DNA of 64,000 nucleotides from an uncultured Poribacteria bacterium. Its GTDB lineage: Bacteria > Poribacteria > WGA-4E > WGA-3G. The translations under genes and the position numbers were made by a program. The stretch is taken from positions 3,410,492 to 3,474,491 of the forward strand of contig OX638351.1 of NCBI GenBank assembly GCA_951813565.1, read 5' to 3'. The notes below the pieces were generated by a model. The model was not told the DNA's origin, did not search any database, and was given only the letters and a program-made list of their open reading frames with translations. Below are positions 14,507 through 30,356 of this stretch, in pieces; the stretch's first letter is position 1; every line of letters begins with the position of its first letter.

Positions 14507-15385
14507 TCAGCAGAGAAGATGGAGAAAAGTTATCACCTGTTTCGTACGTGGAATTCGCCGTGAATGTTCAAAAATCTTGTAGCTTACACTCTCCGACTTG
14601 CTTCCATTCGTTCGAGATTCTTTCGGTTTGCACCAGTAATTTAACGGCACTTCACCCGTTAACTCACCAACGCTTGTCCCGTTAGTAAACTGGGACGCTA
14701 ATGCCTGCGGATGAAGCGGTTGTCCGCTAACCAGATAGCAATCCTTGTTCTCGCGAAACCCATCGGAATACGCGAAGTACCGAATGACACCTGCCTCAGA
14801 AAACACAATCGCACAAACAAATCTGGATAACCTTGTATAATGAATCCCTGTGCTTGTTAAAGACGTGCCGTACTGTGCAGCAAGCGCAGCAATCGCTGGT
14901 AATCCTACTTGTGAATGGGCAGATGAATCTGCCGAAAAGATAGGGGTAGGCATTAGCAATTCAGCAGCAAATTGATTTGCTCGCTGTTCACTCTTTAGAT
15001 ATGCTTGTTTCTTCGCCTGTGCTGTGTCTTCACCCTGTTCTGCAATCATGAAATTCAATCGTTCATCCATTGAACAAGAATCAACAGTATCGCGCTCTAA
15101 CATGTAATGACCGATTTCATGCGCAATAGTGAAATTTCGGCGAGACTCTGATCGGATACGCGCATTGACAAGAATACCCCACGCATTCTCGACTCGCATC
15201 AGGCAACCGTCACAAGTGTCGGGAAGTTCACGTTCCCAGATCACAATGCCGAGTTTTGTCGCGATTTGTCTTGGGTCTATCGGAAAATCTTGTATTTTAA
15301 AGTCGCGAAGGATGCCCCATGCCGCCGCAGCGGGACTGTCCTTCGCATATTGCAGCCGATTATTCAGCATCAGCGGAACCTTCAT
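14507..15385 (-). CDS. ImmA/IrrE-family (DUF955/COG2856) zinc metallopeptidase with C-terminal extension
   Basis: HEXXH motif IAHEIGHYML plus the downstream ImmA-type motif EQRANQFAAELLMP. About 150-aa C-terminal extension of unknown function. Start trimmed to the internal Met (MKVPLM) to limit overlap with the upstream XRE gene. Confidence 0.8.
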   Translation of the reverse strand: MKVPLMLNNRLQYAKDSPAAAAWGILRDFKIQDFPIDPRQIATKLGIVIWERELPDTCDGCLMRVENAWGILVNARIRSESRRNFTIAHEIGHYMLERDTVDSCSMDERLNFMIAEQGEDTAQAKKQAYLKSEQRANQFAAELLMPTPIFSADSSAHSQVGLPAIAALAAQYGTSLTSTGIHYTRLSRFVCAIVFSEAGVIRYFAYSDGFRENKDCYLVSGQPLHPQALASQFTNGTSVGELTGEVPLNYWCKPKESRTNGSKSESVSYKIFEHSRRIPRTKQVITFLHLLC

Positions 15386-15728
15386 TCGGTGTTTCTGTTT
15401 CCGCTTGTGTCTTGAGAAATTTATAGAATTCATAGAGCGTTTCTTTATCTTTCTCCGCGAATTCCATCATTCCCCTGAACATTACATTAACCCTCGGATC
15501 CGCCAATAAGTCTTCATAACCACGGTCCTTCTTACCAAGCAGGTAATCTGTTGTTACCTTCAAGGCATCAGACAAACTGGAAAGCGTATTAAAAGAGGGT
15601 TTTCGAGTTCCTGACTCAAATTGAGAAATAGCTGCAGGCGTCAAATTCGCTGCCTTTGCCAATTCAGTTTGCGTCATTTTAAGTTCACGTCGACGTTGTT
15701 TTATTCGTGAGATAACTTCTTCACTCAT
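15360..15728 (-). CDS. XRE-family helix-turn-helix transcriptional regulator
   Basis: Classic Cro/C1 HTH LKMTQTELAKAANLTPAAISQFESGTRKPSFNTLSSLSDALKV. Sits immediately upstream of, and overlapping, the ImmA/IrrE gene. The pair is a canonical regulator-protease module. Confidence 0.8.
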   Translation of the reverse strand: MSEEVISRIKQRRRELKMTQTELAKAANLTPAAISQFESGTRKPSFNTLSSLSDALKVTTDYLLGKKDRGYEDLLADPRVNVMFRGMMEFAEKDKETLYEFYKFLKTQAETETPNEGSADAE

Positions 15729-16577: not shown

Positions 16578-16733
16578 GGGTGTGTAAATATTTGGTTACA
16601 TAGATTCAATTTGCAATGATTACGCGGCGTTTCCACTGTAGGGCGGGGTCCCGGGGAATGCCTTAAGGCATTCCCCGGAGACCCGCCCCTACAATAGGAG
16701 TTGTGCGGATTTCTACAAAAACTTTACACACCC
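16578..16733. repeat. MITE-like repeat, family A (compact, near-perfect palindrome)
   Basis: GGGTGTGTAAATATTTGG...GGGCGGGGTCCCGGGGAATGCCTTAAGGCATTCCCCGGAGACCCGCCCC...AAACTTTACACACCC. Confidence 0.85.
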
Positions 16734-16749
16734 TTATACATTATTTATG

Positions 16750-16778
16750 TTGACAATAAATTCTAAATTTGGTACACT
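16750..16778 (+). promoter_or_regulatory. candidate sigma70-type promoter for the giant gene
   Basis: TTGACA, then 17 nt (ATAAATTCTAAATTTGG), then TACACT. Located 36 nt upstream of the ATG at 16814 and immediately downstream of the MITE. Confidence 0.5.
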
Positions 16779-16813: not shown

Positions 16814-19800
16814 ATGAGAATTAAATATTATATCGTAATAAATTTACTTGTCTTTCTATGCTGTGTTTCGTTCGGTTATGCAGCAGAAGGCAAAAAAACG
16901 TTAGGGTTGTCGGAAGCTGCAATCCAAATACGAGATCAACTTTCTATCCGTAACATTAGAAAAGACCTTGCACGCTTATCAAGTCTTGAAAGCCGCGTTA
17001 CAGGTTATCCGCAAGCAGCAAATGGAAGTAAATATATTTTTGACCGTTTCGTTGAAATGGGATTGAAGAATGTTGAAAGTCGTGAATTTACTGTCACAGT
17101 TCCTATTGATTATGGTAATAGTGCTATTGACATCCTTTCTGCTGATGGTACGGTGCAACACACGTTCCCACTCAAACCGTTGTGGCCGAACCTTGTCCGA
17201 ACATCCCTTCTTGCCGATGGTGTCAAACATACTGTTGAAGCAGGAGAAACCCTCGAAAAAATCGCAGAAAACTACGCTGTCCCGCTAACAACTATTGCAG
17301 AAAACCCACACAACCAATATTTACCTACACCTGTTGTGGAGGGGAACACGGTTTTCATACCAACTGGCGGTCTTACCGGGCCCTTATTTTACGGAGACGA
17401 TGCCCAACTTGCAGATTTCAACGGAAGTAAAGTCGGCGGCTTTTGGTACAGGCTCCAAGAAGGTGATACACTGGCTTCACTAGCGAGACGTTATCGCGTT
17501 ACGAAAGCGAGTATAACCGATGATGTTCTCAATGGACATCTGCAGAAAGCTTCCGATGGCATTGATAACAATGAAGATGGTACTGTGGATGAATATGGCG
17601 AAATTCCGCTGTTATCAGAGATTCTTGGATGGGCGACAGATGGCATTGACAACGATGCTGATGGTTGGACAGACGAAATTCCCGGCGATGCCACAGATGG
17701 TGTTGATAATAACAAAGACGGCCGGATTGACGAGACAGGCGAATTCATCGCCGCAAGCGAATCCGATATCTTTATCCCCAAAGGCGCGATCGTTCTTGCC
17801 GAGTTTAATTCGGGTACCCGATGGATCAACGCTGCCATGCTTGGTGCCTCCGCTGTTATTTTTATCGAACCAGAAACAACAATCCGAGGCGAAGCAGAAA
17901 ACAAATTCCTCACTGTACCAGCCAACATTCCCCGATTTTGGATTTCTAATACAGATGCTGTTCAATTAAAAGATTTTCTTGCCACAGGTGAAGAGGTCAA
18001 TGTTCGCTTGCGCGGTAAAATGAAATGGGAACGACGCGTCGGTCAAAACATTCGTGGCTTTTTAGAAGGTGGCGATCCTGTCCTACGCGATGAACTAGTC
18101 GTCGTTACCGCATATTACGATTCTATGTCAGTCGTACCGGCAATTGCCCCTGGTGCTGACCCAACTTGTGGGATTGCTGTCCTAATGGAGCTTGCACGTC
18201 TGTTCGGACAACCGCAATACCGCCCTGGTCGTTCAGTACTATTTGTTGCTGTTGACGCGCATTTCCAAGGTTTAGCTGGCATGCGCGCATTTATGGAAGG
18301 TATTGGACAAGATATTGTCGGGTCAGCAACTGATTCCCCTGGAACCCCTACTTTGCAAGGGTTAAGAAGGGGTTTGTCAAATGATATTATCGAGTTTGAA
18401 GAATTAGGACGCAAACTATTACTTTCCATTGATCGGAGTATTTTGGTTGACTTGGACGCGGATTTTTACCACGGCGTGCACGGGATAAAAGAAGACCTTG
18501 AATCGCTCTCCACAACGTTGACAGGACTCTCTACAACCCGTTCTCAAATTGATTGGTTACACAGAGCGCAACGAGATTTCTCAGAACGCCAGAAAAAACA
18601 GGTGGATCGCAACCGAAAACGCGAAAAACAGGGATTCACAGAGGAAGAAAAATCAAGACTCGAAGCGAATCTCGTTCGGTTTGAAAAAGAAGCATTGCAA
18701 ACGACACACTTCCTTCGCGAGATTGTTAACCGACTGGGACAGATTCGGACATCCGCCTTGAAAACGAGTAAGGATGCTCAACGAGAACTCATTGAAACTA
18801 TCGCATTGCCTATTGCACGATTAGACACATGGGCAGTGGATAGGCTGATGCGCGAACTTGAATCAGGCGAGATAGATGACCGATACGACACGCATCCAAA
18901 CGCATCATACCTGTTACCGATGAAGGATGGAACCGATTATGAAGTGCCAACACCTGACGATCTACCACCAGAATTATTATCCGAAATTGAACAATTGAAC
19001 AAGACTCTTGCCAATTGGGAGATGAGTGATCAGCGTAAATTTGCTTTGATGTGGACACCTGACAAAATACTTGACCGCCACTTAGATTTGCCGACTCTCA
19101 GAAAAGCGAGAGATGCACGAAAGACCCTTGCAAACACAACTGAATCTAAGGAAGATGCCATACCACGAGAGCGAGTACTTCTGGAAAAAATAAAGGAAAA
19201 TCTCAAGGACACCGCTACCATTGAAAATCAAATTAAAGAAGCTATTACGAAATTGAGCAGTGATCGTGAGCACGATCTTCCACCTGAAGTATTAACGCAA
19301 TATCTAACTGAAGCATCACAAGAACGGATTAATAGAATTGATGATCAACTCCAGCAACGTTTGACCGAAGCAACTTCAGCATCTGTGGTAGGTGAAGCTG
19401 GAGATGGTTCATCTGAAAATATTCTAATTGAGGATTTGGCACGCGATAAGCAAGGCATTTTTGAAATTGCACTGCGGAATGCCCGTTTAGAACGGACGCG
19501 TATCCAGTATCTCCTTGATTCCCATGAAACCCTCACACGTGAGTTTCTTGATGAGGAGTTGCTAATTCTGAAAAGTTATCTTTCAGGTGAGGAGGTTGCA
19601 CAAGCAAAAGAGGCACGCAAACATATTGCCGCCTATCTGGTTGAAGCCGAAATCCTACAAGCAGTCAAACAGAACGCAGCTTCAGATGTGATCGCTCTTG
19701 AAAATCTAATCAAGCAGCTCCCATCGCTAACAAGGGATATAGATGCACAAACGAAGGTGCTTCTTCGCGATAATATGCTCACGCTAAGGAATGCGCGATT

Positions 19801-22800
19801 CCGAAACATTCAGAGCAGAGTTGAGAAGATGTCGCGCATAAGCGAGATAGAATATAATCGCAAACTCGCTCAGATTGAAGCCGCAGTTGCACTACAAGAC
19901 CTATTCAACCGATACTATACCTCTCTTTTCTGTAGCATTGACCTTTCCTCTCAATCGAATCAGTTCGGTGTATTTAACAAAGGATGGTTTTATGACCAAC
20001 AACCGGAATTTGTGTTACGGCGAGAGTTCGCGAGTATTGGCAATAAACTCGCTGCTTATGCAGCTGATGCTGATTTCGGTGTCCGCGTGAGGAAATTATG
20101 GCGAGCAACAGACGATCAGATTCGTCAAGCGGTTATGGCGCGACAGTGGTCAGTGGCAAGTCAGATTTCTGATAAGGCAGACCTTGAAGGGAAAACGCTT
20201 GAGACTCTGCTTAGCGCACACTATGGTAAACTCACAGGTTTAGGCGGTGTTAGCCGACTCATGAAGATGCAGTTTGAGCAGTGGCGAAACCGAGGTGAAC
20301 CGTCTGAAGATATGCTTAAGGATATGGACTATATCCGCAAAGAGGTAGAACGGTTTATCCGAAACGATGTGCGCAGCGCAAAGAAAAACCGAAAAAACAG
20401 TATCCGCATGCGTGAACAGTTAGACGCTATGCTAAGACTCCGGCACGAAGACCCCGACACATTTACTGAAGATGAGATAGAGGACATTAAAACATTAATC
20501 TCAATTGTAGGATTGGGCGGCGGTAGTAACTTTGTCAATGCAATTTCCGCGAGTGGTGGAAAAACGTGGAAAACCTATATCCCAGGGAAAATCGCCTTTG
20601 ATAGTGAGGTCGCAACACTTGTTGGTAAAACAGGCATCGCCTTTGCAACGATTGAAGACGCGCGCGTCCTTACCGATACACCGCTTGATACGATTGATCG
20701 CGTTGATCTACGTGAAGATGGCAATCTACATCAACAAGCAAAAACATTGGCATCTCTACTGATACAAGCGCTACGCGATCCACAGATGCCCACTGCAGCA
20801 CGCGTTGGAAACTTTTATTGTAACCTTTTCGGTGATGTAGTTGAATTCGATGCCCGTGAATCTGCGTTGCCAAATAAACCTGTACCATATCCGATTGTAA
20901 CGCTTCGCCGAAAACACAAAACTATGATGGGGGTACGCGGTGACTTATTCGCCATGGGCGATAATAAAGGTAATTTTGAAGTCGCTGGGTTGGCAATGGA
21001 AGGCAGAGCGACTCGCAGACTTGGTGGTGCGCAAGAAGTAGAGGCATATATCCTTGACTCCGATTCTGGGGATATTGTCTACGCTCCCGATTTAGGGAAT
21101 TACGGTGCTAAACTGCTACCGAATAAAGTGCCGATCAACACACGGCGACGGGGATGTCGGGTTGTCACTTTCCCGTGTGTATCCACAACTATCTATGATT
21201 TAGTTGACCAGCGCTATCTCCGTACCTTACGCGAATTAGAGGTGTATGATGCGTTATCCGATAGCCCACCCGAAAAATTCGGCGTGTCTAAACCGTGGCA
21301 GCAGGAAGGTGTTTCTGCAGCTGAACCGATCGCGCTTGTCTATAGCGAACCGCAAAGCCGTATAAAAATTGGGATGGCGTACGGACAAATCGGTAAACGT
21401 CTACTTCTTATTAAAGCGACCAAAAGCGGTATGAAAAATCCAACGCTTTACACTGGCGAAGGGTTTGTAGTCCGTGAAAACGGCAGTATCCGTCTCACGC
21501 CTTATGTTGTTGTACGCGATATGTGGTGGCTTGATGAGAATCGGTCTCGCCTTTACAAACGGTTCGGTATATCCAGTGATCGGCTTGATAAGTTGCATCA
21601 ATTTGCCAATGAATATCTCTCACGAGCAGAAACTGCACTTTTCCAAAACGACTACCAGCAGGCGCTGAAGTTGGCACGTGCTGCATGGGGATACGAATCA
21701 CGCGCCTATCCGGATGTAAAAAGAACTGGGAACGATGTCGTTAACGGCATTATGTTCTACCTTGCGCTCTTGATGCCGTTTGCCTACTTTATGGAACGGC
21801 TTATATTCGGTTTCCCAAACATTCACAAACAGATTTTAGCCACTTTTGGCATTTTCCTCCTTGTCTTTTACTTCTTAAGTCAGGTGCATCCAGCGTTCCA
21901 GATAACAACAACGCCCATAATTATCTTAATTGCCTTCATTGTTCTTGCGTTGACTGTGCTTGTCATCAGCATTATCGTTAGGAAATTTGAGGAACAACTT
22001 GAAAAGATACGTCAGCAGGGCAATAAGGTGTATAAAGCCGATGTCGGTAGGTTGAGCGCAAGTGCTGCAGCATTTAGCCTCGGTATCTCCAATATGCGGA
22101 AACGCAAAGGACGAACTATTCTTACGTGCGCCACATTGGTTATTCTCACGTTTACTGTCATCTCGTTTACATCGGTGCGGACGTTTATGCGTCCTAACCG
22201 AACCAGTTTGCCACAAGTTACACCGCGTTATACAGGCTTACTCATTCGCGATCAGTATTGGCGTCCTCTTGAAGAACCTATCCTTAACTCAATTCTAAAC
22301 GATATGCAGAAGACGCAAATTACTGTAAATGATTTAGAACGACTTCTGGAACAGAAAAATCTAATTCTTGCAAAGCAAGGGCAAACGCCACTGGATATAC
22401 CTGCAGCAATTGCAGGATTGCAGGAAAGTGGGTTTATCAAAAATGTTGACGAAGAACCGATTCTCGCTGTTCAAAATGTTGTCGCGCCACGCGCATGGTA
22501 CCAGTCCTCTGGAACAGGGGATCAATCTTTTGTACAACTGACGCGAAGCCCGAACACACAAGACACTGCACCACCGACACGCCCGCTCACAGGTGAACCG
22601 TTGAGCTTCGCCGCAAACATGCTTGTTGGCATGAGTGAGTCGGAACCCGCAGTCACTGGTATTGATCGCTATCTCCAATATGGAAAATGGTTTAATCGTG
22701 ATGATGCTGACAATTGGCCAACCGAGTGGCCCTACGCAATCGTTCTTCCGAAAGGGATGGCAGATCTTTTGAAACTAACCGAAAGTGATATGGGGAAAGC

Positions 22801-24097
22801 GACAATCTCTGTTTATGGTGCTGATTTTACCGTTGTCGGTGTTTTGGGGATAGGATTCAAGGATTTGACTGATAACGATGGCGAAGAAATGACACCTGTA
22901 GATTACCAATTGATGCAGCAGCAACAGAGTAGAGGTGGCACAGGCGATGAAACGCTTGAGGGGGAACTTCAAAAATATCTCCATCTCACCCCAGATAGCA
23001 TTGCAGTTTTGCCTTATGAAGTTGTCATGAACCAAGGCGGAACACTTAGAAGCGTTGCAGTCAACATGGAACCTCAAGAGAACGATCCGAAACTATTAGG
23101 TGCAATTGATAAACTTGATCTTATCATGGCACCGCTGATGAACCGCATTGCGCTTGACTTTTTTGTTGGACGCGACAAAGATACCTATCTTTATAGCAGT
23201 ATTGGTATGACCAGTTTTAGCGGCATGGGCAACCTATTTGTGCCAATTCTGATTGCTGCGTTGATTGTTCTAAATACCATGCTCGGTGCAGTTTATGAGC
23301 GCGTCCGCGAAATAAGCATTTACAGTTCTGTTGGACTCGCGCCTATCCATATCGCTTTCCTCTTCCTTGCCGAAGCGTGTGTATATGCGATTGTTGGCGC
23401 TGTTTTAGGGTATCTAATGGGACAGGTGATCGCAACAACATTGGTGCATTTCGGTTGGCTCGCGGGCTTAACGCTAAACTATTCTTCAATGTCTACAGTC
23501 GTGGCGACAGTTATTGTGATGATTGTGGTGCTGCTCAGTACGCTTTACCCTGCTATAAAAGCATCCCGCATGGCAGTGCCAGATATTGAACGAAAATGGA
23601 AGTTGCCTGAACCTGAAGGCGATATATGGCATTTCAATCTACCGTTTACCGTTTTAGCGGAAGAAGCACTTGGCTTGAACGTCTTTATGCGCGATTATTT
23701 TGATGCACATGCCGATGAGTCTGCCAGCGATTTCTATACAGACAACGTTACTTTCAGTTCTGCTGAAGAGGATTCTTATGAGATTGGGATGATGGTCTGG
23801 TTAGCGCCTTACGATTTAGGTGTAAGTCAATCTATCCAATTTATCACTTCGCCTGTCGGTGGAGAAGAAGAAGACCTTTTCAAAATCACATTAGATGTGC
23901 ACCGCGAAAGTGGTGAGATAGCGTCATGGAAACGTGTCAATCGTCGTTTCCTCAATTTGTTGCGAAAACAGTTGCTGATATGGCGAACCTTCAGCGTTGA
24001 TATCCGCTCAGAATTCCATGAACGGGGTAGAACCGAAAGCACTGATACGCCAGAGGGTACCGGGCAATTGGATCCCGTCGTGGCACCGGCGGATTAG
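16814..24097 (+). CDS. giant (2427 aa) multidomain envelope protein: signal/TM - 2x LysM - TSP3-like Ca-binding repeats - PA domain - M28-peptidase-like (apparently degenerate) domain - coiled coils - C-terminal MacB/FtsX-type permease module
   Basis: LysM: HTVEAGETLEKIAENYAVPLTTIAEN and YRLQEGDTLASLARRYRVTKASI. Ca-binding repeats: DGIDNNEDGTVDEYGE / DGIDNDADGWTDE / DGVDNNKDGRIDETGE. PA plus M28-like: VVTAYYDSMSV...GADPTCGIAVLMELARLF...VLFVAVDAHFQGLAGMRAF, with the usual His/Asp/Glu-Glu zinc-ligand positions appearing substituted. C-terminus contains TM RTILTCATLVILTFTVISF, then a roughly 350-aa loop, then FtsX-like 3-TM LIAALIVLNTMLGAVYERVREISIYSSVGLAPIHIAFLFLAEACVYAIVGAVLGYLMG. Confidence 0.85.
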   Translation: MRIKYYIVINLLVFLCCVSFGYAAEGKKTLGLSEAAIQIRDQLSIRNIRKDLARLSSLESRVTGYPQAANGSKYIFDRFVEMGLKNVESREFTVTVPIDYGNSAIDILSADGTVQHTFPLKPLWPNLVRTSLLADGVKHTVEAGETLEKIAENYAVPLTTIAENPHNQYLPTPVVEGNTVFIPTGGLTGPLFYGDDAQLADFNGSKVGGFWYRLQEGDTLASLARRYRVTKASITDDVLNGHLQKASDGIDNNEDGTVDEYGEIPLLSEILGWATDGIDNDADGWTDEIPGDATDGVDNNKDGRIDETGEFIAASESDIFIPKGAIVLAEFNSGTRWINAAMLGASAVIFIEPETTIRGEAENKFLTVPANIPRFWISNTDAVQLKDFLATGEEVNVRLRGKMKWERRVGQNIRGFLEGGDPVLRDELVVVTAYYDSMSVVPAIAPGADPTCGIAVLMELARLFGQPQYRPGRSVLFVAVDAHFQGLAGMRAFMEGIGQDIVGSATDSPGTPTLQGLRRGLSNDIIEFEELGRKLLLSIDRSILVDLDADFYHGVHGIKEDLESLSTTLTGLSTTRSQIDWLHRAQRDFSERQKKQVDRNRKREKQGFTEEEKSRLEANLVRFEKEALQTTHFLREIVNRLGQIRTSALKTSKDAQRELIETIALPIARLDTWAVDRLMRELESGEIDDRYDTHPNASYLLPMKDGTDYEVPTPDDLPPELLSEIEQLNKTLANWEMSDQRKFALMWTPDKILDRHLDLPTLRKARDARKTLANTTESKEDAIPRERVLLEKIKENLKDTATIENQIKEAITKLSSDREHDLPPEVLTQYLTEASQERINRIDDQLQQRLTEATSASVVGEAGDGSSENILIEDLARDKQGIFEIALRNARLERTRIQYLLDSHETLTREFLDEELLILKSYLSGEEVAQAKEARKHIAAYLVEAEILQAVKQNAASDVIALENLIKQLPSLTRDIDAQTKVLLRDNMLTLRNARFRNIQSRVEKMSRISEIEYNRKLAQIEAAVALQDLFNRYYTSLFCSIDLSSQSNQFGVFNKGWFYDQQPEFVLRREFASIGNKLAAYAADADFGVRVRKLWRATDDQIRQAVMARQWSVASQISDKADLEGKTLETLLSAHYGKLTGLGGVSRLMKMQFEQWRNRGEPSEDMLKDMDYIRKEVERFIRNDVRSAKKNRKNSIRMREQLDAMLRLRHEDPDTFTEDEIEDIKTLISIVGLGGGSNFVNAISASGGKTWKTYIPGKIAFDSEVATLVGKTGIAFATIEDARVLTDTPLDTIDRVDLREDGNLHQQAKTLASLLIQALRDPQMPTAARVGNFYCNLFGDVVEFDARESALPNKPVPYPIVTLRRKHKTMMGVRGDLFAMGDNKGNFEVAGLAMEGRATRRLGGAQEVEAYILDSDSGDIVYAPDLGNYGAKLLPNKVPINTRRRGCRVVTFPCVSTTIYDLVDQRYLRTLRELEVYDALSDSPPEKFGVSKPWQQEGVSAAEPIALVYSEPQSRIKIGMAYGQIGKRLLLIKATKSGMKNPTLYTGEGFVVRENGSIRLTPYVVVRDMWWLDENRSRLYKRFGISSDRLDKLHQFANEYLSRAETALFQNDYQQALKLARAAWGYESRAYPDVKRTGNDVVNGIMFYLALLMPFAYFMERLIFGFPNIHKQILATFGIFLLVFYFLSQVHPAFQITTTPIIILIAFIVLALTVLVISIIVRKFEEQLEKIRQQGNKVYKADVGRLSASAAAFSLGISNMRKRKGRTILTCATLVILTFTVISFTSVRTFMRPNRTSLPQVTPRYTGLLIRDQYWRPLEEPILNSILNDMQKTQITVNDLERLLEQKNLILAKQGQTPLDIPAAIAGLQESGFIKNVDEEPILAVQNVVAPRAWYQSSGTGDQSFVQLTRSPNTQDTAPPTRPLTGEPLSFAANMLVGMSESEPAVTGIDRYLQYGKWFNRDDADNWPTEWPYAIVLPKGMADLLKLTESDMGKATISVYGADFTVVGVLGIGFKDLTDNDGEEMTPVDYQLMQQQQSRGGTGDETLEGELQKYLHLTPDSIAVLPYEVVMNQGGTLRSVAVNMEPQENDPKLLGAIDKLDLIMAPLMNRIALDFFVGRDKDTYLYSSIGMTSFSGMGNLFVPILIAALIVLNTMLGAVYERVREISIYSSVGLAPIHIAFLFLAEACVYAIVGAVLGYLMGQVIATTLVHFGWLAGLTLNYSSMSTVVATVIVMIVVLLSTLYPAIKASRMAVPDIERKWKLPEPEGDIWHFNLPFTVLAEEALGLNVFMRDYFDAHADESASDFYTDNVTFSSAEEDSYEIGMMVWLAPYDLGVSQSIQFITSPVGGEEEDLFKITLDVHRESGEIASWKRVNRRFLNLLRKQLLIWRTFSVDIRSEFHERGRTESTDTPEGTGQLDPVVAPAD

Positions 24098-24126: not shown

Positions 24127-24324
24127 ATGTATATGGAAAAATTAGCAAGCGTTATTATTATCATTGGGACTGTTCTATGGTTTATTAGCGTTCTGTTTTT
24201 GGGAGGGCGTTGGCAGTGGCAAATGTTGGCAGCACTTATATTAACTATCGGCATCTTCCTCGCTCATTTTTGGGAAGAACTCAGCGAAGAAAAGAATAAG
24301 AATACACCGAAAGATGATAATTGA
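24127..24324 (+). CDS. small two-TM membrane protein (65 aa)
   Basis: Two hydrophobic helices (VIIIIGTVLWFISVLFLGG and ALILTIGIFLAHFW). Sits 30 nt after the giant gene. Confidence 0.4.
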   Translation: MYMEKLASVIIIIGTVLWFISVLFLGGRWQWQMLAALILTIGIFLAHFWEELSEEKNKNTPKDDN

Positions 24325-24412: not shown

Positions 24413-26401
24413 TTGGCGCGAGAGAGAATCTCACAAGCAGATGAATGGCAAACGTGGGCACAACGCTACGACATAGAAGGCGGCATCCGAACCTTTGAAT
24501 CTGGATTGACGGGCAAAGTGTTCTTCGGTGCACTTTTTGTCGGTTTGCTCATGATGCCCGGCTCCATCTATCTGAGTTATGTATCTGGTCAATCAGGTGC
24601 AGCGGCTGCCCCTTGGGTAGCAGTTATCTTGTTCACCGAATTAGCCAGACGTTCCTTCACCACGGCACGTCGTCAAGAACTCTATATGCTGCTAAGCCTC
24701 ACTGGTGCAGCAGTCGGCAGCGGTATGCAATATCGGAGTTTTATTTGGTATGCATATTTTATAAACACACCGCAAGCCATTTCTTATGAAATTGCCGACA
24801 AAATACCCGCATGGGTTGTGCCAGCAGGTGATTCCTTAGCCATTGCGAGCCGAAGTCTGCTACATCCTGACTGGTTGTTGCCTATAGGTATCTACCTCGC
24901 GGGGAAGTTTCTTGGGACTCTGCGGGTTGTCAGTGGTCAGTATATTCTCTTTAGACTTACTGCTGACCTTGAACGGCTTCCCTATCCGATGGCACCGATT
25001 ACAGCACAAGGTGCAACTGCGTTAGCTGAAACAACTGGTAAACAAGAAACATGGCGATGGCAAGTCTTTTCTATCGGGTCTATGGCAGGCTTAATATGGG
25101 GATTCATCTACATCGGCGTTCCTGCTCTCACTGGCGTGATGATGAGCCAACCGATACAAATTTTGAAGATACCGTGGATAGATTTTACGCAAAGTATTGA
25201 AGGATTCGCGCCGACAGGGGTCTTTGCGCTTCGAACCGACTTCGGACAGATGCTCTTCGGATTCGTCTTGCCGTTTCCAGTGGTGATGTCGGAGTTTGTT
25301 ACCGCGATGCTTTCGCAATTTGTTGTCAATCCACAAATTCTCTACAGAAACGAGATATTACATCAATGGGAACCTGGACTTGATGTGCGCGCGACTGGGC
25401 TCTTCAACGATCTCGATTTCTGGAGGAGTTACGGCATAGGTAAAACGTTTAGCCTCGGTCTTGTTGGCATGGCTGCCTCTGTCCCAATGCTTTTCAAACT
25501 TCGCAGTACCCAGAAAAAGGCGGGAGAACGTGGGTCACTTGCCACACCACCGAACCGTGGTGATTTTCCATTATGGCTTATGGGAACACTATGGTTGATC
25601 GGTATGGGTGGATTTGTCTGGCTCATCCATTGGATGGTACCGAATTTCCCACTGAGTTTCCTACTTGGATTCGCGTTCTTATATACGCCAATTAATTCAT
25701 ATATCACCGCAAGGACGTTCGGCGTGCTCGGCCGTGATCTATTTGAAATACCTTATTTGCATGAGATCACTTTTATTCTCAGCCGGTACGAGGAGATTGA
25801 TATCTGGTTTGCCCCGCTACCTGACGAAGATTACGGAGCAGGCACACAAGGATGGCGCGTGCTTGAACTTACCGGAACAACTTTTACATCAAACCTTGCT
25901 GCCACGCTTCTGATTATGCCTATCCTGATTGTTAGTGGAATTGTGGTACAGCACTTTATCTGGCAAATAGCACCAATACCGAGCGCACAATATCCATTTG
26001 TTCAGATGATGTGGCCGATTAACGCAACAAACGAATGTCTCATGAAAACATCACTGCGCGATGGGAATAGTGAGATAATACAAGCCATTCGAGGTGATTA
26101 TGTTGCGGCAGGATTTACCTCCAGTCTCGCGATCTATGGACTGCTTTGGGTGTTAAAATATCCGTCAATGTGGTTTTACGGTATTATTGGTGGAATTGGT
26201 GCTGATCCGGGCAGTATGGTTGCGCGGTTACTCGGGGCCATCATCGGTAGATTCTATATGATTAAGCGGTTCGGTTTGAAGCGGTGGTTTATGTTCAATC
26301 CGGTACTGGCAGCAGGCTTTGCTTGTGGTGTGGGACTGATCGGGATGGGTACCGTTGCCATTGCCCTTGTCTCTAAAGCGGTCATTGTTAAGCCGTTTTA
26401 G
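24413..26401 (+). CDS. large polytopic integral membrane protein (662 aa), unknown family
   Basis: At least 14 predicted hydrophobic helices. TTG start with AAGGAG SD 8 nt upstream. No catalytic motif recognised. Confidence 0.6.
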   Translation: MARERISQADEWQTWAQRYDIEGGIRTFESGLTGKVFFGALFVGLLMMPGSIYLSYVSGQSGAAAAPWVAVILFTELARRSFTTARRQELYMLLSLTGAAVGSGMQYRSFIWYAYFINTPQAISYEIADKIPAWVVPAGDSLAIASRSLLHPDWLLPIGIYLAGKFLGTLRVVSGQYILFRLTADLERLPYPMAPITAQGATALAETTGKQETWRWQVFSIGSMAGLIWGFIYIGVPALTGVMMSQPIQILKIPWIDFTQSIEGFAPTGVFALRTDFGQMLFGFVLPFPVVMSEFVTAMLSQFVVNPQILYRNEILHQWEPGLDVRATGLFNDLDFWRSYGIGKTFSLGLVGMAASVPMLFKLRSTQKKAGERGSLATPPNRGDFPLWLMGTLWLIGMGGFVWLIHWMVPNFPLSFLLGFAFLYTPINSYITARTFGVLGRDLFEIPYLHEITFILSRYEEIDIWFAPLPDEDYGAGTQGWRVLELTGTTFTSNLAATLLIMPILIVSGIVVQHFIWQIAPIPSAQYPFVQMMWPINATNECLMKTSLRDGNSEIIQAIRGDYVAAGFTSSLAIYGLLWVLKYPSMWFYGIIGGIGADPGSMVARLLGAIIGRFYMIKRFGLKRWFMFNPVLAAGFACGVGLIGMGTVAIALVSKAVIVKPF

Positions 26402-26430: not shown

Positions 26431-27378
26431 ATGGACTGGACTCTTTTTGGTTGGGCAGGCATTCAGTTAGAGATACCGACAACTTGGGAAATCAGTGGTA
26501 TCAGCGGCGATGAGAAGAACGGTTACCTTCGGTTAGATGACGCTGAGATGCCTCGGTTAGAACTCAAATGGGCAAAGACACGGAAAAAGAAACCTGACCT
26601 ACACAAAACACTCGACGAATACTTCAAGTTAGTCCGTAAAAACTACAAACGCGGTGGTAATGTCTCATTTCGTAGGAACGTTGACCTTATTAAAGACGAG
26701 GATTTTTTAAAAGGTCACACTGTCCTTGGTTTTAGTTGGAAGGGAGGTATCCGCGCAAATGGATTGATCATCCATAGTCCCGATACTAAACGGATCACCA
26801 TTGTCCAAGTCATGGGACGGCTCAAAGAAAACTGGCGTCCTACGGTACTACGCATCTTTCAATCTATTTCGGACCAAGGAGACCCGAAAAACACCGTCTG
26901 GAGTGCGTATGGACTGAGGCTTGCTGTTCCGAAAAACTATAAGTTAGAAAGCCAGAAACTTCTCAGCGGATATCTATTGTTTGCATTTACAAGAGGTAAA
27001 AGTCGTAAACTTAGTATTGAACGCTACGGTCCTGCGGAGGTGTTATTAAACGAATTTAGTTCAGAACCGAATCCTTTAGAGACTTGGTTTCGGGCGCGCT
27101 ACGCTAAAGCGATTCGTGGTTATGGGTTTGAAGTGACACCACATGAAGAGCACGGAGACGAACGCATCACGTTTGTCGGACAGCAGACACGACTTTACGA
27201 TAGTATGCCATTTTCACCCTTACTAGTACTTGATAAACTCCGAAAACGGGTAAGACTTACGTTTTTTATTTGGCATTGTTATCATACCAACCGTATCTAT
27301 GTGGTGCAATCAATTGGACGCCATGAGACCTCTGAGAAACTTGCACAAGAGGTCGCAAAAAGTATTCACTGCCACTAA
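26431..27378 (+). CDS. hypothetical protein (315 aa)
   Basis: Protein-like ORF 30 nt downstream of the membrane protein. No recognisable motif. Confidence 0.5.
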   Translation: MDWTLFGWAGIQLEIPTTWEISGISGDEKNGYLRLDDAEMPRLELKWAKTRKKKPDLHKTLDEYFKLVRKNYKRGGNVSFRRNVDLIKDEDFLKGHTVLGFSWKGGIRANGLIIHSPDTKRITIVQVMGRLKENWRPTVLRIFQSISDQGDPKNTVWSAYGLRLAVPKNYKLESQKLLSGYLLFAFTRGKSRKLSIERYGPAEVLLNEFSSEPNPLETWFRARYAKAIRGYGFEVTPHEEHGDERITFVGQQTRLYDSMPFSPLLVLDKLRKRVRLTFFIWHCYHTNRIYVVQSIGRHETSEKLAQEVAKSIHCH

Positions 27379-27547: not shown

Positions 27548-28913
27548 TAGCACTCCCCGTCAAACCCCCTGCCTTTAGGTAGGGGATGTCCACGGCGAAA
27601 GTTTTGATTTAAAATATACTTTTCAATCTAATCACAATGTGGTATAATATATCATACTATAGTGTAACTCTTGAAGTGATAAAAGACTATATTGAAGGTC
27701 AAAGTGGTCAATGAGAAAATCTCACAAGTTCAAACTTCAACACCAATCTAACACAATCAAACTTGGTAATATGCTTGATGATATGTGGGAAATCCATCTA
27801 CATATCATGCGTTTGGCACGTAGGTATTATCGCATGTTCGGCAAAAATTTGTCTGCGTATCGTCTGAAGGCACACGTCACAAAACTTAAAAAGACAACTA
27901 AACCGCATTGGGCAGCCTTGCCGAGCCAAGTTGTGCAAGACATTGTGCTGCATGGTAAATCTCAAGACGCTTTCTTTGAGAATATCGAAGACCGAAAAGC
28001 GGGCAAAACAACGCGTAAAGTGGATAGACCGAAAATCAAACCGCGCCACAAATACAACGCCATGACCTTCACACAAGCAGGCTACAAACTTGAAGGGAAC
28101 CGTATCAAAATCAACTGTATAGATACATGGTTTTCCTTTCACAAACACCGTGAAATCAAAGGTGTCATCAAGACGATAACGATCAAACGTGACAGGTGCG
28201 GTGACTATTGGATATGCTTTTCGTGTGAGAATGTTGACGATTCCGAACCCAAACCCAAGAGGGGTAAGAGCGCAGGATTTGATTATGGAAACAAAACATT
28301 CCTCACAAGCGACGAAGGGGACACAATAGAATCCCCGCAGTTTTTCAAACAATCACTCAACACGTTGCGATCTCTCAACAAAGCACTCAGTCGTAAAGTC
28401 AAAGGTTCTAACAACTATTATCGTGCGTGCCGTGCTTTGGCAAGGCAACACAGAAAGGTTGCCCGACAAAGAGAAGATTGGCAATGGAAACTTGCCTCAA
28501 AACTTTGTGTAGAGTTTGACACACTCATTTTTGAAACGCTGAACCTTGACGGTATGAAACGATTATGGGGACGTAAAGTTTCTGACCATTCTTTCTACCA
28601 GTTTCTTCAGATATTGGAACAGAAGTGTGCCAAACACGGCAAAAAACTTGTGCAAATCTCTCAATGGATAGCAACAACAAAACCTTGTAGTGATTGTGGA
28701 TACCCTAACAAAGAACTCTCTCTTTCTGATAGGCAGTGGACATGCCCCAAATGTGGCTCACACCACGACAGAGACATCAATGCTGCTATCAATATCAAAC
28801 AGGCAGGCTTGGCTGCCTAAAGTGGAGCGACAATAAGACGGTGGACGCTAAGCGAAAACCGCAGTCGCAAGGAAGCACAAGCCCCTACCTTTAGGTAGTG
28901 GGTACCTATGACA
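27548..28913 (+). mobile_element. IS200/IS605-family TnpB-only insertion element (IS1341-like), copy 1
   Basis: Left end hairpin CCCCCTGCCTTTAGGTAGGGG. TnpB ORF in between. Right end GCCCCTACCTTTAGGTAGTGGGTACCTATGACA, the region expected to encode the omega/reRNA. Roughly 96% identical to the inverted copy at 59351..60720. No tnpA. Confidence 0.85.
27711..28820 (+). CDS. tnpB: TnpB (OrfB) RuvC-like RNA-guided nuclease of IS200/IS605 family
   Basis: 369 aa. C-terminal zinc finger CSDCG...C.KCG and RuvC-III ...DRDINAAINI. Typical TnpB N-terminus MRKSHKFKL.... Confidence 0.9.
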   Translation: MRKSHKFKLQHQSNTIKLGNMLDDMWEIHLHIMRLARRYYRMFGKNLSAYRLKAHVTKLKKTTKPHWAALPSQVVQDIVLHGKSQDAFFENIEDRKAGKTTRKVDRPKIKPRHKYNAMTFTQAGYKLEGNRIKINCIDTWFSFHKHREIKGVIKTITIKRDRCGDYWICFSCENVDDSEPKPKRGKSAGFDYGNKTFLTSDEGDTIESPQFFKQSLNTLRSLNKALSRKVKGSNNYYRACRALARQHRKVARQREDWQWKLASKLCVEFDTLIFETLNLDGMKRLWGRKVSDHSFYQFLQILEQKCAKHGKKLVQISQWIATTKPCSDCGYPNKELSLSDRQWTCPKCGSHHDRDINAAINIKQAGLAA

Positions 28914-28929: not shown

Positions 28930-29847
28930 TTGGTGGAATTGATTGATTTTAGCCAACTTACACAAATTAACAGGAGTTTTATTCCAAACACGCTTCGCGA
29001 ACAAGAGTCTGACATCGTTTTTAGCGTCCCTTTTCAACACGAATCGAAAACTAACGAGATACTTATCTATATTCTCATTGAACACCAATCAACAGTTGAT
29101 GTTACAATGGGATTTCGATTGTTGTTTTACATGACGCAGATATGGGATTTTCAACGTAGGGAGTGGGAATCGAACAATGTTTCCAAAAGTGAGCGGCGTT
29201 TTCGCCCAATCCTTCCGATTGTGTATTACACTGGCGCGCAGCAGTGGAAAACACCGTTGACTCTTGAGGCGATAATGGACATTCCTGATGTGCTTGCTCG
29301 CTTTGTCCCAAAATTTGATTCTTTGTTTCTAAGCGTAAAAGAAACAGATGAAGTGGATCTAACGAAAACTGGTCATCCATTGGGATGGTTGTTAACTGTA
29401 CTTCAAAAGGAACATGCAGACAAGGAAGCGATAAGTAGTGCGTTGCTTGAAGCTATATCTCACATTAACGCTCTTGATGAAGAACAAGCACAGCAGCGAC
29501 GGAGAGCAATTATCTATTTCTTGTTGTTGATATTGCATCGTCGTCCGGCTAAAGAACACGAAGATTTGATAGCACTTATTGACCAACATACACACGAGTT
29601 GGAGGTAGAAACCATGGCAAAATCAATGGCAGACGTTCTCAGAGAACAAGGTATTGAACAAGGCCAAACACGGGCAAAACAGGAGGCAGTACTTAAGCTC
29701 CTACAAATTCAATTTGGTGATGTGCCTGAGGATGTTTCTAAAAGAATTACTTCTATCCGTAGTATCTCAAGTCTTGATTCGCTCTTTGAGAAAACGGCTA
29801 CCGTTCAAACACTTGATGAAATTGATTGGCAAAACTATAATGACTAA
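28930..29847 (+). pseudogene. Rpn/YhgA-like recombination-promoting nuclease (PD-(D/E)XK, with C-terminal DUF4351), probably 5'-truncated by the TnpB element
   Basis: ILIYILIEHQSTVDVTMGFRLLFYMTQIW core of the YhgA-like family. DUF4351-like C-terminus VLKLLQIQFGDVPEDVSKRI. Lacks about 25 N-terminal residues typical of the family. In-frame upstream sequence is IS right-end DNA, with a stop at 28909. Confidence 0.6.
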
Positions 29848-29891: not shown

Positions 29892-30356
29892 ATGCTTAAC
29901 AAAGTTCTATATACCCTTAAACTAAAAAAACGACCTGATGTAGATAGAGGCAAAGTCCTCAAAGCATTTCCGCTACGCAATCAGTTGATAACGTGGGAAT
30001 TAGACGAAAAAGGTGAAGCCTCGCTCATCATTCCGCAGAAAGATAAATTCTGGGTTAGACTTACAAGTAAACTTTTTATGCTCCCCAATAAACGGGTTGT
30101 TGTGCTGGATAGCATCGGTACATACGTATGGGAAATGTGTGATGGGAAGCATACTATTTCACAGATTATCAAGGCACTCCAGAAAAAACATCAACTGACC
30201 CGAAAAGAAGCCGAAACTTCACTTTTTACCTTTGTCCAACAGCTCGGAAAACGAAATTTTATCCAATTTGCTATTCCGAGTGAAGAAAAACCGAATGAGG
30301 CAGCAGCACAAAAACCCGCGCAACAGAAGCGTTTCGGATTTTTGGCAAAGCGATAA
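29892..30356 (+). CDS. PqqD-family protein (RiPP-recognition-element-like peptide chaperone fold)
   Basis: VVVLDSIGTYVWEMCDGKHTISQIIKALQKKHQLTRKEAETSLFTFVQQLGKRNFI matches the PqqD 'N.TG..IWelldG..tv.eIv..L...y.v..e.a..dv..Fl..L...gll' pattern. Confidence 0.6.
   Translation: MLNKVLYTLKLKKRPDVDRGKVLKAFPLRNQLITWELDEKGEASLIIPQKDKFWVRLTSKLFMLPNKRVVVLDSIGTYVWEMCDGKHTISQIIKALQKKHQLTRKEAETSLFTFVQQLGKRNFIQFAIPSEEKPNEAAAQKPAQQKRFGFLAKR

Follow-up and report, generated by a model that had tools for sequence, protein, structure and literature searches.

A giant protein joining an M28-like head to a Type VII ABC permease is encoded first in a conserved operon of Poribacteria and has relatives in at least seven phyla

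The window analysed here, a stretch of 64,000 nucleotides from an uncultured Poribacteria bacterium (assembly GCA_951813565.1, contig OX638351.1), contains an uninterrupted gene at positions 16814-24097 of the forward strand that begins with ATG and encodes a protein of 2427 amino acids (aa). The protein is the permease subunit of a Type VII (MacB/LolCE/FtsX-class) ATP-binding cassette (ABC) system and carries, fused on the same polypeptide, a head with a peptidase fold of the M28 type. It belongs to an uncharacterised, widespread Type VII ABC system, of which the window holds the most elaborate, Poribacteria-specific form. The architecture and the operon are put forward with great confidence. 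Type VII ABC mechanotransmission to a fused peptide- or protein-binding head is the best overall explanation and is considered probable, a judgement made across the architecture and operon together with the handling of peptides; the peptide-handling scheme taken by itself is tentative. Type VII ABC systems are a known bacterial route by which ATP energy is carried across the inner membrane into periplasmic work, and to our knowledge only a few of their functional classes have been characterised.

The protein was divided into the following parts (window positions, strand, description; amino-acid positions in brackets).

16814-24097 (+): giant gene, M28-like head and Type VII ABC (MacB/FtsX-type) permease, from the open reading frame, Pfam, homologues and AlphaFold2 (AF2) models
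16814-16885 (+): predicted signal peptide or N-terminal anchor (aa 1-24), hydrophobic at aa 6-24, with MRIK...GYA/AEG read directly
16916-17218 (+): putative N-terminal M28-fold segment (aa 35-135), proposed from the family-wide 'SRVTGYPxA...' and lying outside both AF2 models
17228-17554 (+): two LysM domains (aa 139-183 and approximately 211-247), from Pfam, Poribacteria-specific
17555-17734 (+): three acidic DG[IV]DN[ND]xDGxxDE repeats (aa 248-307), from the sequence, with a low predicted local distance difference test (pLDDT) score in the AF2 model
17759-18028 (+): PA (apical) domain within the M28 fold (aa 316-405), weak in Pfam, with Foldseek matches to the transferrin receptor (TfR), GCPII, Nicalin and 3iib
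18029-18313 (+): M28 core part A (aa 406-500) with Y434, D436, D449, H483 and F484, from Pfam, alignment to the Vibrio/Aeromonas aminopeptidase AAP and column counts
18353-19912 (+): helical/coiled-coil insertion 1 (aa 514-1033), from AF2 and spacing, Poribacteria-specific
19913-20005 (+): M28 core part B (aa 1034-1064) with D1043 at AAP D179, from beta-strands of the model and column counts
20006-20509 (+): helical insertion 2 (aa 1065-1232), with AF2 helices of 33 and 45 residues
20510-20803 (+): M28 core part C (aa 1233-1330) with D1263-S-E1265 and T1279..D1282.R1284...D1288-T-P-x-D1292, near-invariant columns
20831-21493 (+): beta-rich periplasmic domain including a small beta-sandwich (aa 1340-1560)
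21497-22021 (+): stalk helices and three extra transmembrane (TM) helices (aa 1562-1736), from hydropathy and AF2, with an invariant 'HPAF' loop
22049-22168 (+): amphipathic helix and TM1 of the MacB module (aa 1746-1785), from AF2, with a near-invariant 'LGISNMRRRKxRTxLT'
22172-23221 (+): periplasmic core domain between TM1 and TM2 (aa 1787-2136)
23225-23575 (+): FtsX domain, TM2-TM4, with the coupling-helix motif YERVREISIYSSVG (aa 2138-2254)
23624-24043 (+): C-terminal cytoplasmic alpha+beta domain, family-specific (aa 2271-2410)

The permease module was assigned from domain searches, hydropathy and structure prediction. In Pfam, FtsX matched aa 2143-2253 (E = 1.1e-11; 45.2 bits against a gathering cutoff of 25.5) and MacB_PCD stayed below threshold (19.9 bits against 27). 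The hydropathy scan gave the signal-like segment at aa 6-24, TM helices at 1642-1660, 1672-1692 and 1702-1720, and a further one at 1768-1786 followed by a loop of approximately 350 aa and three more within 2142-2244; hydropathy and AF2 together place TM1 of the MacB module at 1765-1785 and TM2-4 at 2138-2254, separated by that loop. The AF2 model of aa 1340-2427, built with 79 homologues at 27-97% identity (pLDDT 83.6; predicted template-modelling score, pTM, 0.73), begins with the beta-rich domain (1340-1560), two stalk helices and three TM helices, continues through a cytoplasmic linker with an amphipathic helix, TM1 and a mixed alpha/beta periplasmic domain (1787-2136), and ends with TM2-4 and a compact alpha+beta cytoplasmic domain (2271-2410). 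The order TM1, large periplasmic core and TM2-4, with a MacB-like fold, was thus present in the model. When the model was compared with the PDB by Foldseek, the top 33 matches were all Type VII ABC permeases or isolated periplasmic domains of such permeases, including MacB (E = 1.7e-10), LolC/E, Spr0694-0695, HrtB, YbbP and BceB. Global TM-scores were low, which is explained by the additional domains of the query and by a different pose of its domains relative to one another. PDB sequence matches of the module were LolC, MacB, YtrF and LolF.

The loop between TM2 and TM3 (aa 2161-2174, YERVREISIYSSVG) consists of columns that are invariant or near-invariant among 80 relatives, and its ER-x-REIG-type motif is the counterpart of the coupling helix that engages the ATPase in the structures of MacB and LolCDE. 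Conservation along the protein is highest in the FtsX module, the coupling helix and the cytoplasmic domain (0.9-0.99 identity), and the last of these carries the most conserved motifs of the family, WLAPFDLGVSQ and RxSGxxxxWxRxNxRFLxxLRKQFLIWRT. For this domain of approximately 140 aa no sequence or profile relative was found in the PDB, and a Pfam search of 13 members gave one weak KA1 match only. Every feature of Type VII permeases that could be tested, namely FtsX score, fold, coupling motif and ATPase, was found. A first reading of the DNA made from its letters and reading frames, here called the sequence-only reading, had placed effector-like domains and a MacB/FtsX permease on one polypeptide behind an N-terminal TM or signal segment; Pfam, AF2 and Foldseek agree with this, and the parts it listed are all present in the layout, from which it had missed the three extra TMs (1642-1720) and the cytoplasmic domain (2271-2410).

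The same reading had raised an assembly chimera as a possible objection, and an artefact (chimera, fused genes or pseudogenes) might be suspected from the unusual length, the heterogeneous mix of domains and the mobile elements nearby. A word-indexed search returned 417 homologues of the giant protein, of which the best 120 are full length (2378-2478 aa) at 71-95% identity; the named entries among these 120 are Candidatus Poribacteria, several of them on contigs of 5-6 Mb. A chimera is ruled out by full-length homologues in many independent assemblies. Against an artefact of any kind stand more than 100 full-length, co-linear homologue clusters from such assemblies, the same architecture in distant phyla, the lack of any internal stop codon in the gene, a GC content that is even along the gene and equal to that of its surroundings, and the confident AF2 domains, and the probability of an artefact is regarded as negligible.

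The spread of the family beyond Poribacteria was determined by an exhaustive HMMER search of 1.84 billion cluster representatives with aa 1228-2427 as the query. At E <= 1e-3 it matched 5,389 representatives, and 1,330 of these 50%-identity clusters passed E <= 1e-30. The 150 best matches were mostly 1,450-1,700 aa long, the typical length in the family being approximately 1,500 aa, and distant members share the architecture M28, MacB_PCD and FtsX. Named source organisms included Armatimonadota/Fimbriimonadales, Omnitrophica, Latescibacteria, Planctomycetes (Phycisphaerae, Brocadiia), Gemmatimonadetes and Deltaproteobacteria, the last including the cultured Desulfospira joergensenii. The sequence-only reading had asked for full-length homologues and their phyla: more than 100 were found in Poribacteria, and relatives of approximately 1,500 aa in at least seven bacterial phyla, so that a unique invention of Poribacteria is ruled out. 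It had also recognised no described family. A literature search (architecture, DUFs, Poribacteria with FtsX or M28) gave nothing relevant and no curated family for the architecture was found, and to this extent it was right; the proteins nevertheless form a large multi-phylum family already deposited under the generic names 'FtsX-like permease family protein', 'M28 family peptidase' and 'hypothetical', and the first two annotations hide a coherent multi-component system.

Five further genes of the system follow the giant gene on the same strand.

24127-24324 (+): 65-aa open reading frame with two TMs, at 44-94% identity in 82 of 82 Poribacteria loci and in Poribacteria only
24413-26401 (+): 662-aa polytopic membrane protein, probable divergent member of the OPT superfamily, from orthologues and synteny
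26431-27378 (+): soluble protein of 315 aa whose conserved Cys/His motif is probably a metal site, from alignment A3 and orthologues
29892-30356 (+): PqqD-like protein (peptide-binding RRE fold), 154 aa, Pfam PqqD at E = 1.2e-11, conserved in the operon
30503-31309 (+): ABC ATPase of the LolD/MacB/FtsE clade, from NCBIfam, with intact Walker A, signature, Walker B and H-loop

A scan of genome contigs with one protein as the query returned Poribacteria only, giving the 82 loci; the giant gene was found in 80 of them, the 662-aa gene, like the 65-aa reading frame, in all, and the 315-aa, PqqD-like and ATPase genes in 81, 79 and 77, respectively. A metagenome scan with an alignment as the query gave 80 further loci, 53 of them with at least 3 kb of sequence downstream of the giant gene. 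A homologue of the 662-aa protein lies directly downstream in 44 of these 53, and the 315-aa, PqqD-like and ATPase genes were present in 29, 27 and 27, counts that are limited by contig ends. The ATPase gene lies 6.4 kb downstream of the giant gene in the window and sits at the end of the operon in most relatives; two other Poribacteria chromosomes carry the same genes as one co-directional cluster without transposases. The sequence-only reading had proposed a self-contained machine powered by a MacB-type ATPase. Such an ATPase is encoded with the giant protein, in the same operon in relatives, and the machine is not self-contained, the giant gene heading a conserved operon that includes four or five partners.

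Gene order is recognisable in distant phyla. In Desulfospira joergensenii a small FtsX gene is followed by the ATPase, the giant gene (here of 1604 aa), a DUF6785/6784 protein and the counterpart of the 662-aa protein, 653 aa long; next come two small proteins, of which the second is orthologous to the 315-aa protein, and finally the PqqD-like gene. In a metagenome-assembled genome (MAG) of Phycisphaerae the order is a 296-aa orthologue of the 315-aa protein, the PqqD-like gene, a 910-aa FtsX protein with lipoyl/HlyD-like segments, the ATPase, the giant gene, a 673-aa orthologue of the 662-aa protein and a second ATPase. By BLASTP against the orthologues beside these two giant genes, the 662-aa protein showed 36-37% identity over its full length, the 315-aa protein matched at E = 5e-20 and 5e-12, and the ATPase showed 68% and 57% identity. 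ATPases are 88-99% identical across the Poribacteria loci fetched, each of which holds a single cluster, and 65-85% identical to the operon ATPases of other phyla.

In approximately 27 metagenome loci a small FtsX gene (four TMs, 185-265 aa, without the large loop) lies directly before the ATPase gene (among loci L102-L168, for example L122:16812-17507 and L168:12489-13172), which suggests a heterodimeric permease in non-Poribacterial operons; no such gene precedes the ATPase in the Poribacteria operons examined, where the 65-aa two-TM reading frame follows the giant gene instead. The second FtsX permease of the Phycisphaerae locus (L085:6397-9129, 910 aa) carries Biotin_lipoyl and weak HlyD-like segments, as if an adaptor had been fused to it, and hints that some versions of the system may reach across the periplasm.

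The partner proteins were characterised by domain and profile searches. Pfam OPT (PF03169) was matched by four of 25 orthologues of the 662-aa protein (best E = 8.8e-10), and the Phycisphaerae 673-aa orthologue, at 37% identity over the full length, scored 36.9 bits against 25.8; a PDB sequence and profile search with the 662-aa protein gave nothing. PqqD (PF05402) matched aa 63-124 of the 154-aa partner with 45.2 bits against 23.4, and all NCBIfam equivalogs were below cutoff. The family of the 315-aa protein has invariant Trp residues and the pattern CxxC...DH...WHCxESNRIY...C-terminal CH, whose Cys and His positions suggest a metal site; no relative was found in Pfam, NCBIfam or the PDB, and a profile search gave 'hypothetical' entries only and no informative fusions. 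The window lineage of this protein has lost the CxxC (IHSPDTKR), which a Poribacteria lineage at 71% identity (locus L001) keeps. Genes for DUF6785/6784 proteins flank members of the giant family in Desulfospira, a Gemmatimonadetes MAG and at least nine metagenome loci, and an ENA metagenome protein of 2088 aa (P0344) consists of a complete giant-family protein (M28, CarboxypepD_reg-like, MacB_PCD, FtsX) fused at its C-terminus to a full DUF6785-DUF6784. Homology of the 662-aa protein to DUF6785/DUF6784 was considered and is unsupported (BLASTP nothing; hhalign probability 13%), and no literature was found on DUF6785/6784 or on this combination of partners.

Compared with MacB, LolCDE and FtsEX, the giant system shares the four-TM permease unit with an N-terminal amphipathic helix and a large periplasmic core between TM1 and TM2, the FtsX-type TM2-4, the ER-x-REIG-like coupling helix and a separate LolD/FtsE-like ATPase, and the second, different FtsX subunit of most relatives recalls LolC/LolE. 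It differs in that the module is preceded by approximately 1,600 aa of additional periplasmic sequence and three more TMs and followed by a cytoplasmic domain of approximately 140 aa, in having OPT-like, PqqD-like and Cys/His partners that are not known from those systems, and in encoding no equivalent of MacA/TolC, LolA or EnvC in its operon. NCBIfam detected weak C-terminal similarity to LolC, ADOP, MacB and FtsX, all far below the equivalog cutoffs (FtsX equivalogs 11-21 bits against 225-255; ADOP 28 bits against 622). The system is outside the FtsEX, LolCDE and MacAB equivalog families, with scores far below cutoff and the defining partners absent. BceAB-type permeases, of which BceB was among the structural matches, and ADOP are likewise enlarged members of the FtsX family with extra TMs and a large extracellular domain; unlike the giant protein they have two FtsX domains (10 TMs) and no M28 head. 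YbbAP-TesA is described in PMC12646458 as an ABC mechanotransducer paired with an extracytoplasmic protein of hydrolase fold. The giant system shares this concept with it and with FtsEX acting with PcsB, CwlO or RipC, and YbbP was among the structural matches, but the hydrolase of these systems is a protein of its own, an esterase or a peptidoglycan hydrolase, whereas here the hydrolase-fold domain is fused, of M28 fold and with a non-canonical site.

For the head, Peptidase_M28 matched aa 412-495 in Pfam (35.5 bits against 21.3), covering profile positions 1-78 of 193 only, and PA was below threshold (16.2 bits against 23.9); the remainder of the M28 alpha/beta fold was recovered beyond the insertions. 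The AF2 model of aa 146-1345 (pLDDT 77.2; pTM 0.60) contains a PA domain together with an M28 alpha/beta core into which helical segments intrude at two places. Its best Foldseek matches were Nicalin (7tm3, 9c7u), TfR and the Shewanella M28 precursor 3iib, followed by GCPII/III, Nicastrin and the AAP and SGAP aminopeptidases, that is, the M28 group with an apical PA insertion. The PA and M28-like domains named in the sequence-only reading are thus present, with PA weak in Pfam and supported by Foldseek through M28 structures of this PA-containing type.

TfR, Nicalin and Nicastrin are non-catalytic parts of membrane complexes. They resemble the giant head in the M28 fold with PA insertion, in the loss of zinc ligands and in serving as extracytoplasmic receptors or gatekeepers, GCPII being an active relative; the giant head differs from them in being bacterial, fused to an ABC permease and conserved in its pocket, and the likeness is one of fold, at 19-22% identity. 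Peptidase-containing ABC transporters (PCATs) of the PCAT1 type also join a peptidase fold and an ABC unit in one polypeptide, with a peptide as the likely cargo, but there a cytoplasmic C39 domain is combined with a Type IV exporter that has its own nucleotide-binding domain (NBD), whereas here a periplasmic M28-like domain is combined with a Type VII permease and a separate NBD; PCAT1 appeared only among the non-significant Foldseek matches of the head.

The site columns were obtained by aligning the head to AAP, with counts over approximately 237 diverse relatives.

AAP H97 (ligand): Tyr434; Tyr or Phe in the family, His in 21 only
AAP D99: Asp436; Asp in 236 of 237
AAP D117 (ligand): Asp449, kept; Glu or Asp in 206 of approximately 237
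AAP E151 (general base): His483; His in 217 of 237
AAP E152 (ligand): Phe484; Phe, Gly or Tyr in the family
AAP D179 (ligand): Asp1043, kept; Asp in 74 and His in 19 of 96
AAP H256 (ligand): Ser1264; Ser, Gly or Ala in the family, the next residue, Glu1265, conserved in 198 of 234

Only the two Asp (D449 and D1043) of the five-ligand set His-Asp-Glu-Asp-His thus remain in the window protein, and the general-base Glu is replaced by His483. That the M28 site is non-canonical, as had been suspected earlier from the segments YDS, GADP and AVDAH, is supported (Tyr434, His483, Phe484 and Ser1264, with Asp449 kept), and a canonical M28 enzyme is ruled out by the ligand columns. The T..D.R...DTPxD motif at the C-terminal end of the M28 core is nearly invariant family-wide. 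The altered pocket is itself strongly conserved (His483, Asp436, Glu/Asp449, Asp1043, Glu1265), and this points to a ligand or metal site that has been retained, not to decay; judged by these columns, the pocket is non-canonical yet not decayed and appears to be a different pocket under purifying selection. Annotation of the protein as an active M28 peptidase is not warranted.

A membrane-anchored, active aminopeptidase for nutrients, with the OPT-like protein importing peptides and the FtsX part serving as an anchor or relic, was weighed at this point. The M28 fold with its PA domain does resemble secreted bacterial aminopeptidases, the OPT-like gene is directly downstream, and a His at the position of Glu151 can support catalysis in AAP: the best PDB sequence match of the head is 2ANP, the AAP E151H mutant, which its authors described as functional (Bzymek et al. 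2005, as cited in PMC3426542). Three of the five zinc ligands are, however, replaced family-wide, and a passive anchor does not fit a protein whose FtsX module, coupling helix and cytoplasmic domain are its most conserved parts and whose dedicated, highly conserved ATPase is co-encoded. This function is considered very improbable.

The window protein was further compared with its relatives by the spacing of conserved residues. The distance from the equivalent of His483 to that of Glu1265 has a median of 125 aa elsewhere against approximately 775 aa in Poribacteria, the region before the His483 equivalent is approximately 310 aa elsewhere against approximately 500 aa in Poribacteria, the N-terminal region being approximately 180 aa shorter outside, and the remainder of the protein is co-linear between Poribacteria and other phyla; these statistics make the window protein a family core of approximately 1,500 aa with Poribacteria-specific additions. 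The additions are the LysM pair, the acidic repeats and the approximately 690 aa of two helical insertions inside the M28 fold. LysM (PF01476) scored 32.4 bits against 20.9 over two stretches, as the sequence-only reading had expected; the module is absent from non-Poribacterial relatives, and its binding to peptidoglycan or chitin is putative. Two other elements of that reading were not upheld. TSP3-like repeats have no hidden Markov model support (no TSP_3 match in Pfam, none in NCBIfam) and are rejected, the segment consisting instead of the three acidic repeats, for which the NCBIfam acidic repeat gave a weak match only (E = 0.01); and the coiled coil of more than 1000 aa is reduced to the mainly helical residues of the two insertions. 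The longest predicted helices over both insertions are of 75, 49, 47 and 45 residues and in insertion 1 helix lengths reach 75, 49, 47 and 36 residues, with pLDDT values of 85-95 for many of the helices, and the insertions are the least conserved part of the protein among Poribacteria.

These additions bear on a function in the cell wall or in adhesion, which the sequence-only reading had suggested as a possibility. In an FtsEX-like device the head and coiled coil would play the part of EnvC or PcsB, LysM would bind peptidoglycan, and the head, controlled by the ATPase, would activate a wall hydrolase or be one itself; the two LysM domains above the Pfam cutoff, the long helices that recall the coiled coils of EnvC/PcsB, and a gene for a class A penicillin-binding protein upstream of the cluster in one relative (L001) speak for it. 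LysM and the helical insertions are, however, confined to Poribacteria and missing from the core of approximately 1,500 aa, no peptidoglycan hydrolase domain (M23/LytM, CHAP, amidase, NlpC/P60 or other) was found by Pfam and NCBIfam in the giant protein or the operon genes, the ATPase is under the FtsE equivalog cutoff (212 against 265 bits), and the OPT-like, PqqD-like and Cys/His partners have no FtsEX counterpart. A cell-wall device of this kind is therefore distinctly unlikely, and a role in the wall would be at most a lineage-specific tethering and not the core function.

A further candidate is a MacB-type pump for export or extraction of a peptide resembling ribosomally synthesised and post-translationally modified peptides (RiPPs), or of a lipid-like molecule, in which the PqqD-like protein would deliver a peptide on the cytoplasmic side and the head would process it outside. 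Such a pump would parallel the peptidase-containing ABC exporters or YbbAP-TesA, PqqD has the fold that recognises RiPP leaders, the closest structures are MacB, LolCDE, HrtBA and YbbAP, the Phycisphaerae partner FtsX protein carries lipoyl/HlyD-like adaptor segments, and part of the C-terminal model, probably the cytoplasmic domain, resembles Bet v 1 and KA1, a lipid- or membrane-binding kind of fold. The operon holds, on the other hand, no conserved precursor peptide gene, radical-SAM enzyme, cyclase or other maturase, and in Poribacteria no adaptor or TolC-like gene; OPT-family members are importers; and the single cluster per Poribacteria locus, with its 88-99% identical ATPase, looks like housekeeping and not like secondary metabolism. 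A pump is considered unlikely.

Mechanotransmission to a fused peptide- or protein-binding head, the explanation preferred here, can be laid out as follows. The N-terminal residues, approximately 1,600 in number, are predicted to be exported as the PA and M28 head and the beta-rich domain, which the three extra TMs and the MacB module anchor in the inner membrane. By analogy with known systems, the ATPase would dock on the coupling helices of a permease dimer, which in Poribacteria would be a homodimer of the giant protein and elsewhere, by analogy with LolC/LolE, probably a heterodimer of the giant protein and the small FtsX protein. By binding and hydrolysing ATP, the ATPase would power mechanotransmission of the MacB kind, in which the periplasmic core moves and no substrate passes through the ABC module, and the movement would be passed on to the covalently attached head. 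The pocket of the head (Tyr/Phe, Asp, Glu/Asp, His, Asp, Glu) would act as a receptor for peptide or protein ends, possibly as a non-canonical hydrolase. A peptide or protein terminus is the most likely ligand, since M28/PA, OPT and PqqD are all peptide-handling superfamilies. Passage of the ligand or product through the membrane would then fall to the OPT-like partner, and cytoplasmic handling or regulation to the PqqD-like and Cys/His proteins; in Poribacteria the LysM pair and helical stalk could tether the head to peptidoglycan or space it relative to peptidoglycan.

Several points weigh against this interpretation. The ATPase, although its NCBIfam scores are strong (LolD 1.8e-70, MacB NBD 2.2e-63, FtsE 5.8e-63, with YbbA and DevA also among the best), falls below the equivalog cutoffs of LolD, FtsE and MacB (FtsE, TIGR02673: 212.4 bits against 264.85). 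Not every relative has the partner genes: none lies within 10 kb in two Armatimonadota (Fimbriimonadales-type) loci, so that a MacB-type ATPase, about whose constant presence nearby the sequence-only reading had asked, is encoded close by in most relatives but not in these. The 662-aa protein of the window itself has no OPT match in Pfam. Hydrolysis by the head may be possible, the E151H form of AAP being functional, though three of the five metal ligands are missing. The substrate, the stoichiometry and the coupling to ATP are inferred by analogy, and any role assigned to the PqqD-like protein, the 315-aa protein or the C-terminal domain is a guess.

A giant family with a fixed set of partners that matches no described system is a testable candidate for a new envelope function, and experiments are possible because the cultured Desulfospira joergensenii carries the operon. 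The broadest form of the proposal, possible and rather doubtful, is that of an unrecognised envelope machine of at least seven phyla, whose Type VII ABC motor would carry ATP energy to a fused non-canonical M28 head in the ATP-free periplasm. There the ends of proteins or peptides would be captured or processed by the head, with its output coupled to the OPT-like permease and the PqqD-like and Cys/His proteins. If true, this would be a new class of mechanotransmission beside MacAB efflux, LolCDE lipoprotein extraction, FtsEX division and YbbAP-TesA lipid hydrolysis. The giant protein is among the largest conserved envelope proteins of Poribacteria, which are abundant, uncultivated sponge symbionts, and the LysM and stalk additions may bear on the organisation of their envelope inside the host.

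The DNA upstream of the operon and the insertions within it were annotated as follows.

16750-16778 (+): promoter-like site TTGACA-17-(TG)gTACACT preceding the operon's first gene, from a consensus scan and comparison of genomes
27711-28820 (+): TnpB (OrfB_IS605 and Cas12f1-like TNB domain), from Pfam, an insertion and not part of the system
28930-29847 (+): Transposase_31/YhgA-like gene, from Pfam, an insertion and not part of the system

A strong sigma70-like promoter had been called at the first of these sites from the letters alone. A consensus scan of 1.5 kb gave seven sites against 4.5 +/- 2.1 in shuffled sequence, which is not above chance by itself. When the 220 nt upstream of the start codon were aligned from 17 related genomes, the block from the -35 element to the ribosome-binding site was kept in at least 14, and the DNA further upstream was unrelated among these Poribacteria genomes. 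A site conserved in position and sequence next to unrelated DNA is probably a real promoter, and the conserved block is good comparative support for the giant gene as the first of its operon. Just upstream of the promoter lies an imperfect palindrome (16637-16695) with arms of approximately 28 bp (TGTAGGGCGGGGTCCCGGGGAATGCCTT and AAGGCATTCCCCGGAGACCCGCCCCTACA), its core unique in the window and the palindrome not present in the aligned upstream regions of related genomes; it could serve as a terminator for the unit upstream, or it could be a small mobile element. Further upstream, an M78/IrrE-like protein is encoded at 14507-15433 (-), with an NCBIfam match to the spr1629-family repressor/antitoxin well below cutoff, and is not conserved beside the operon in other genomes. 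No tRNA, tmRNA or Rfam family at the gathering threshold was found in the 64-kb window.

The two transposase genes split the operon of the window between the 315-aa and PqqD-like genes and are absent from this junction in most relatives. Matches to Transposase_31, mostly partial, were found at the same junction in eight loci, and gaps of the size of an insertion sequence occur at other junctions elsewhere in Poribacteria, between the giant gene and the 65-aa reading frame and between the PqqD-like and ATPase genes (approximately 5 kb). Through this recurrence the intergenic spacers of the operon look like repeated landing sites for such elements.

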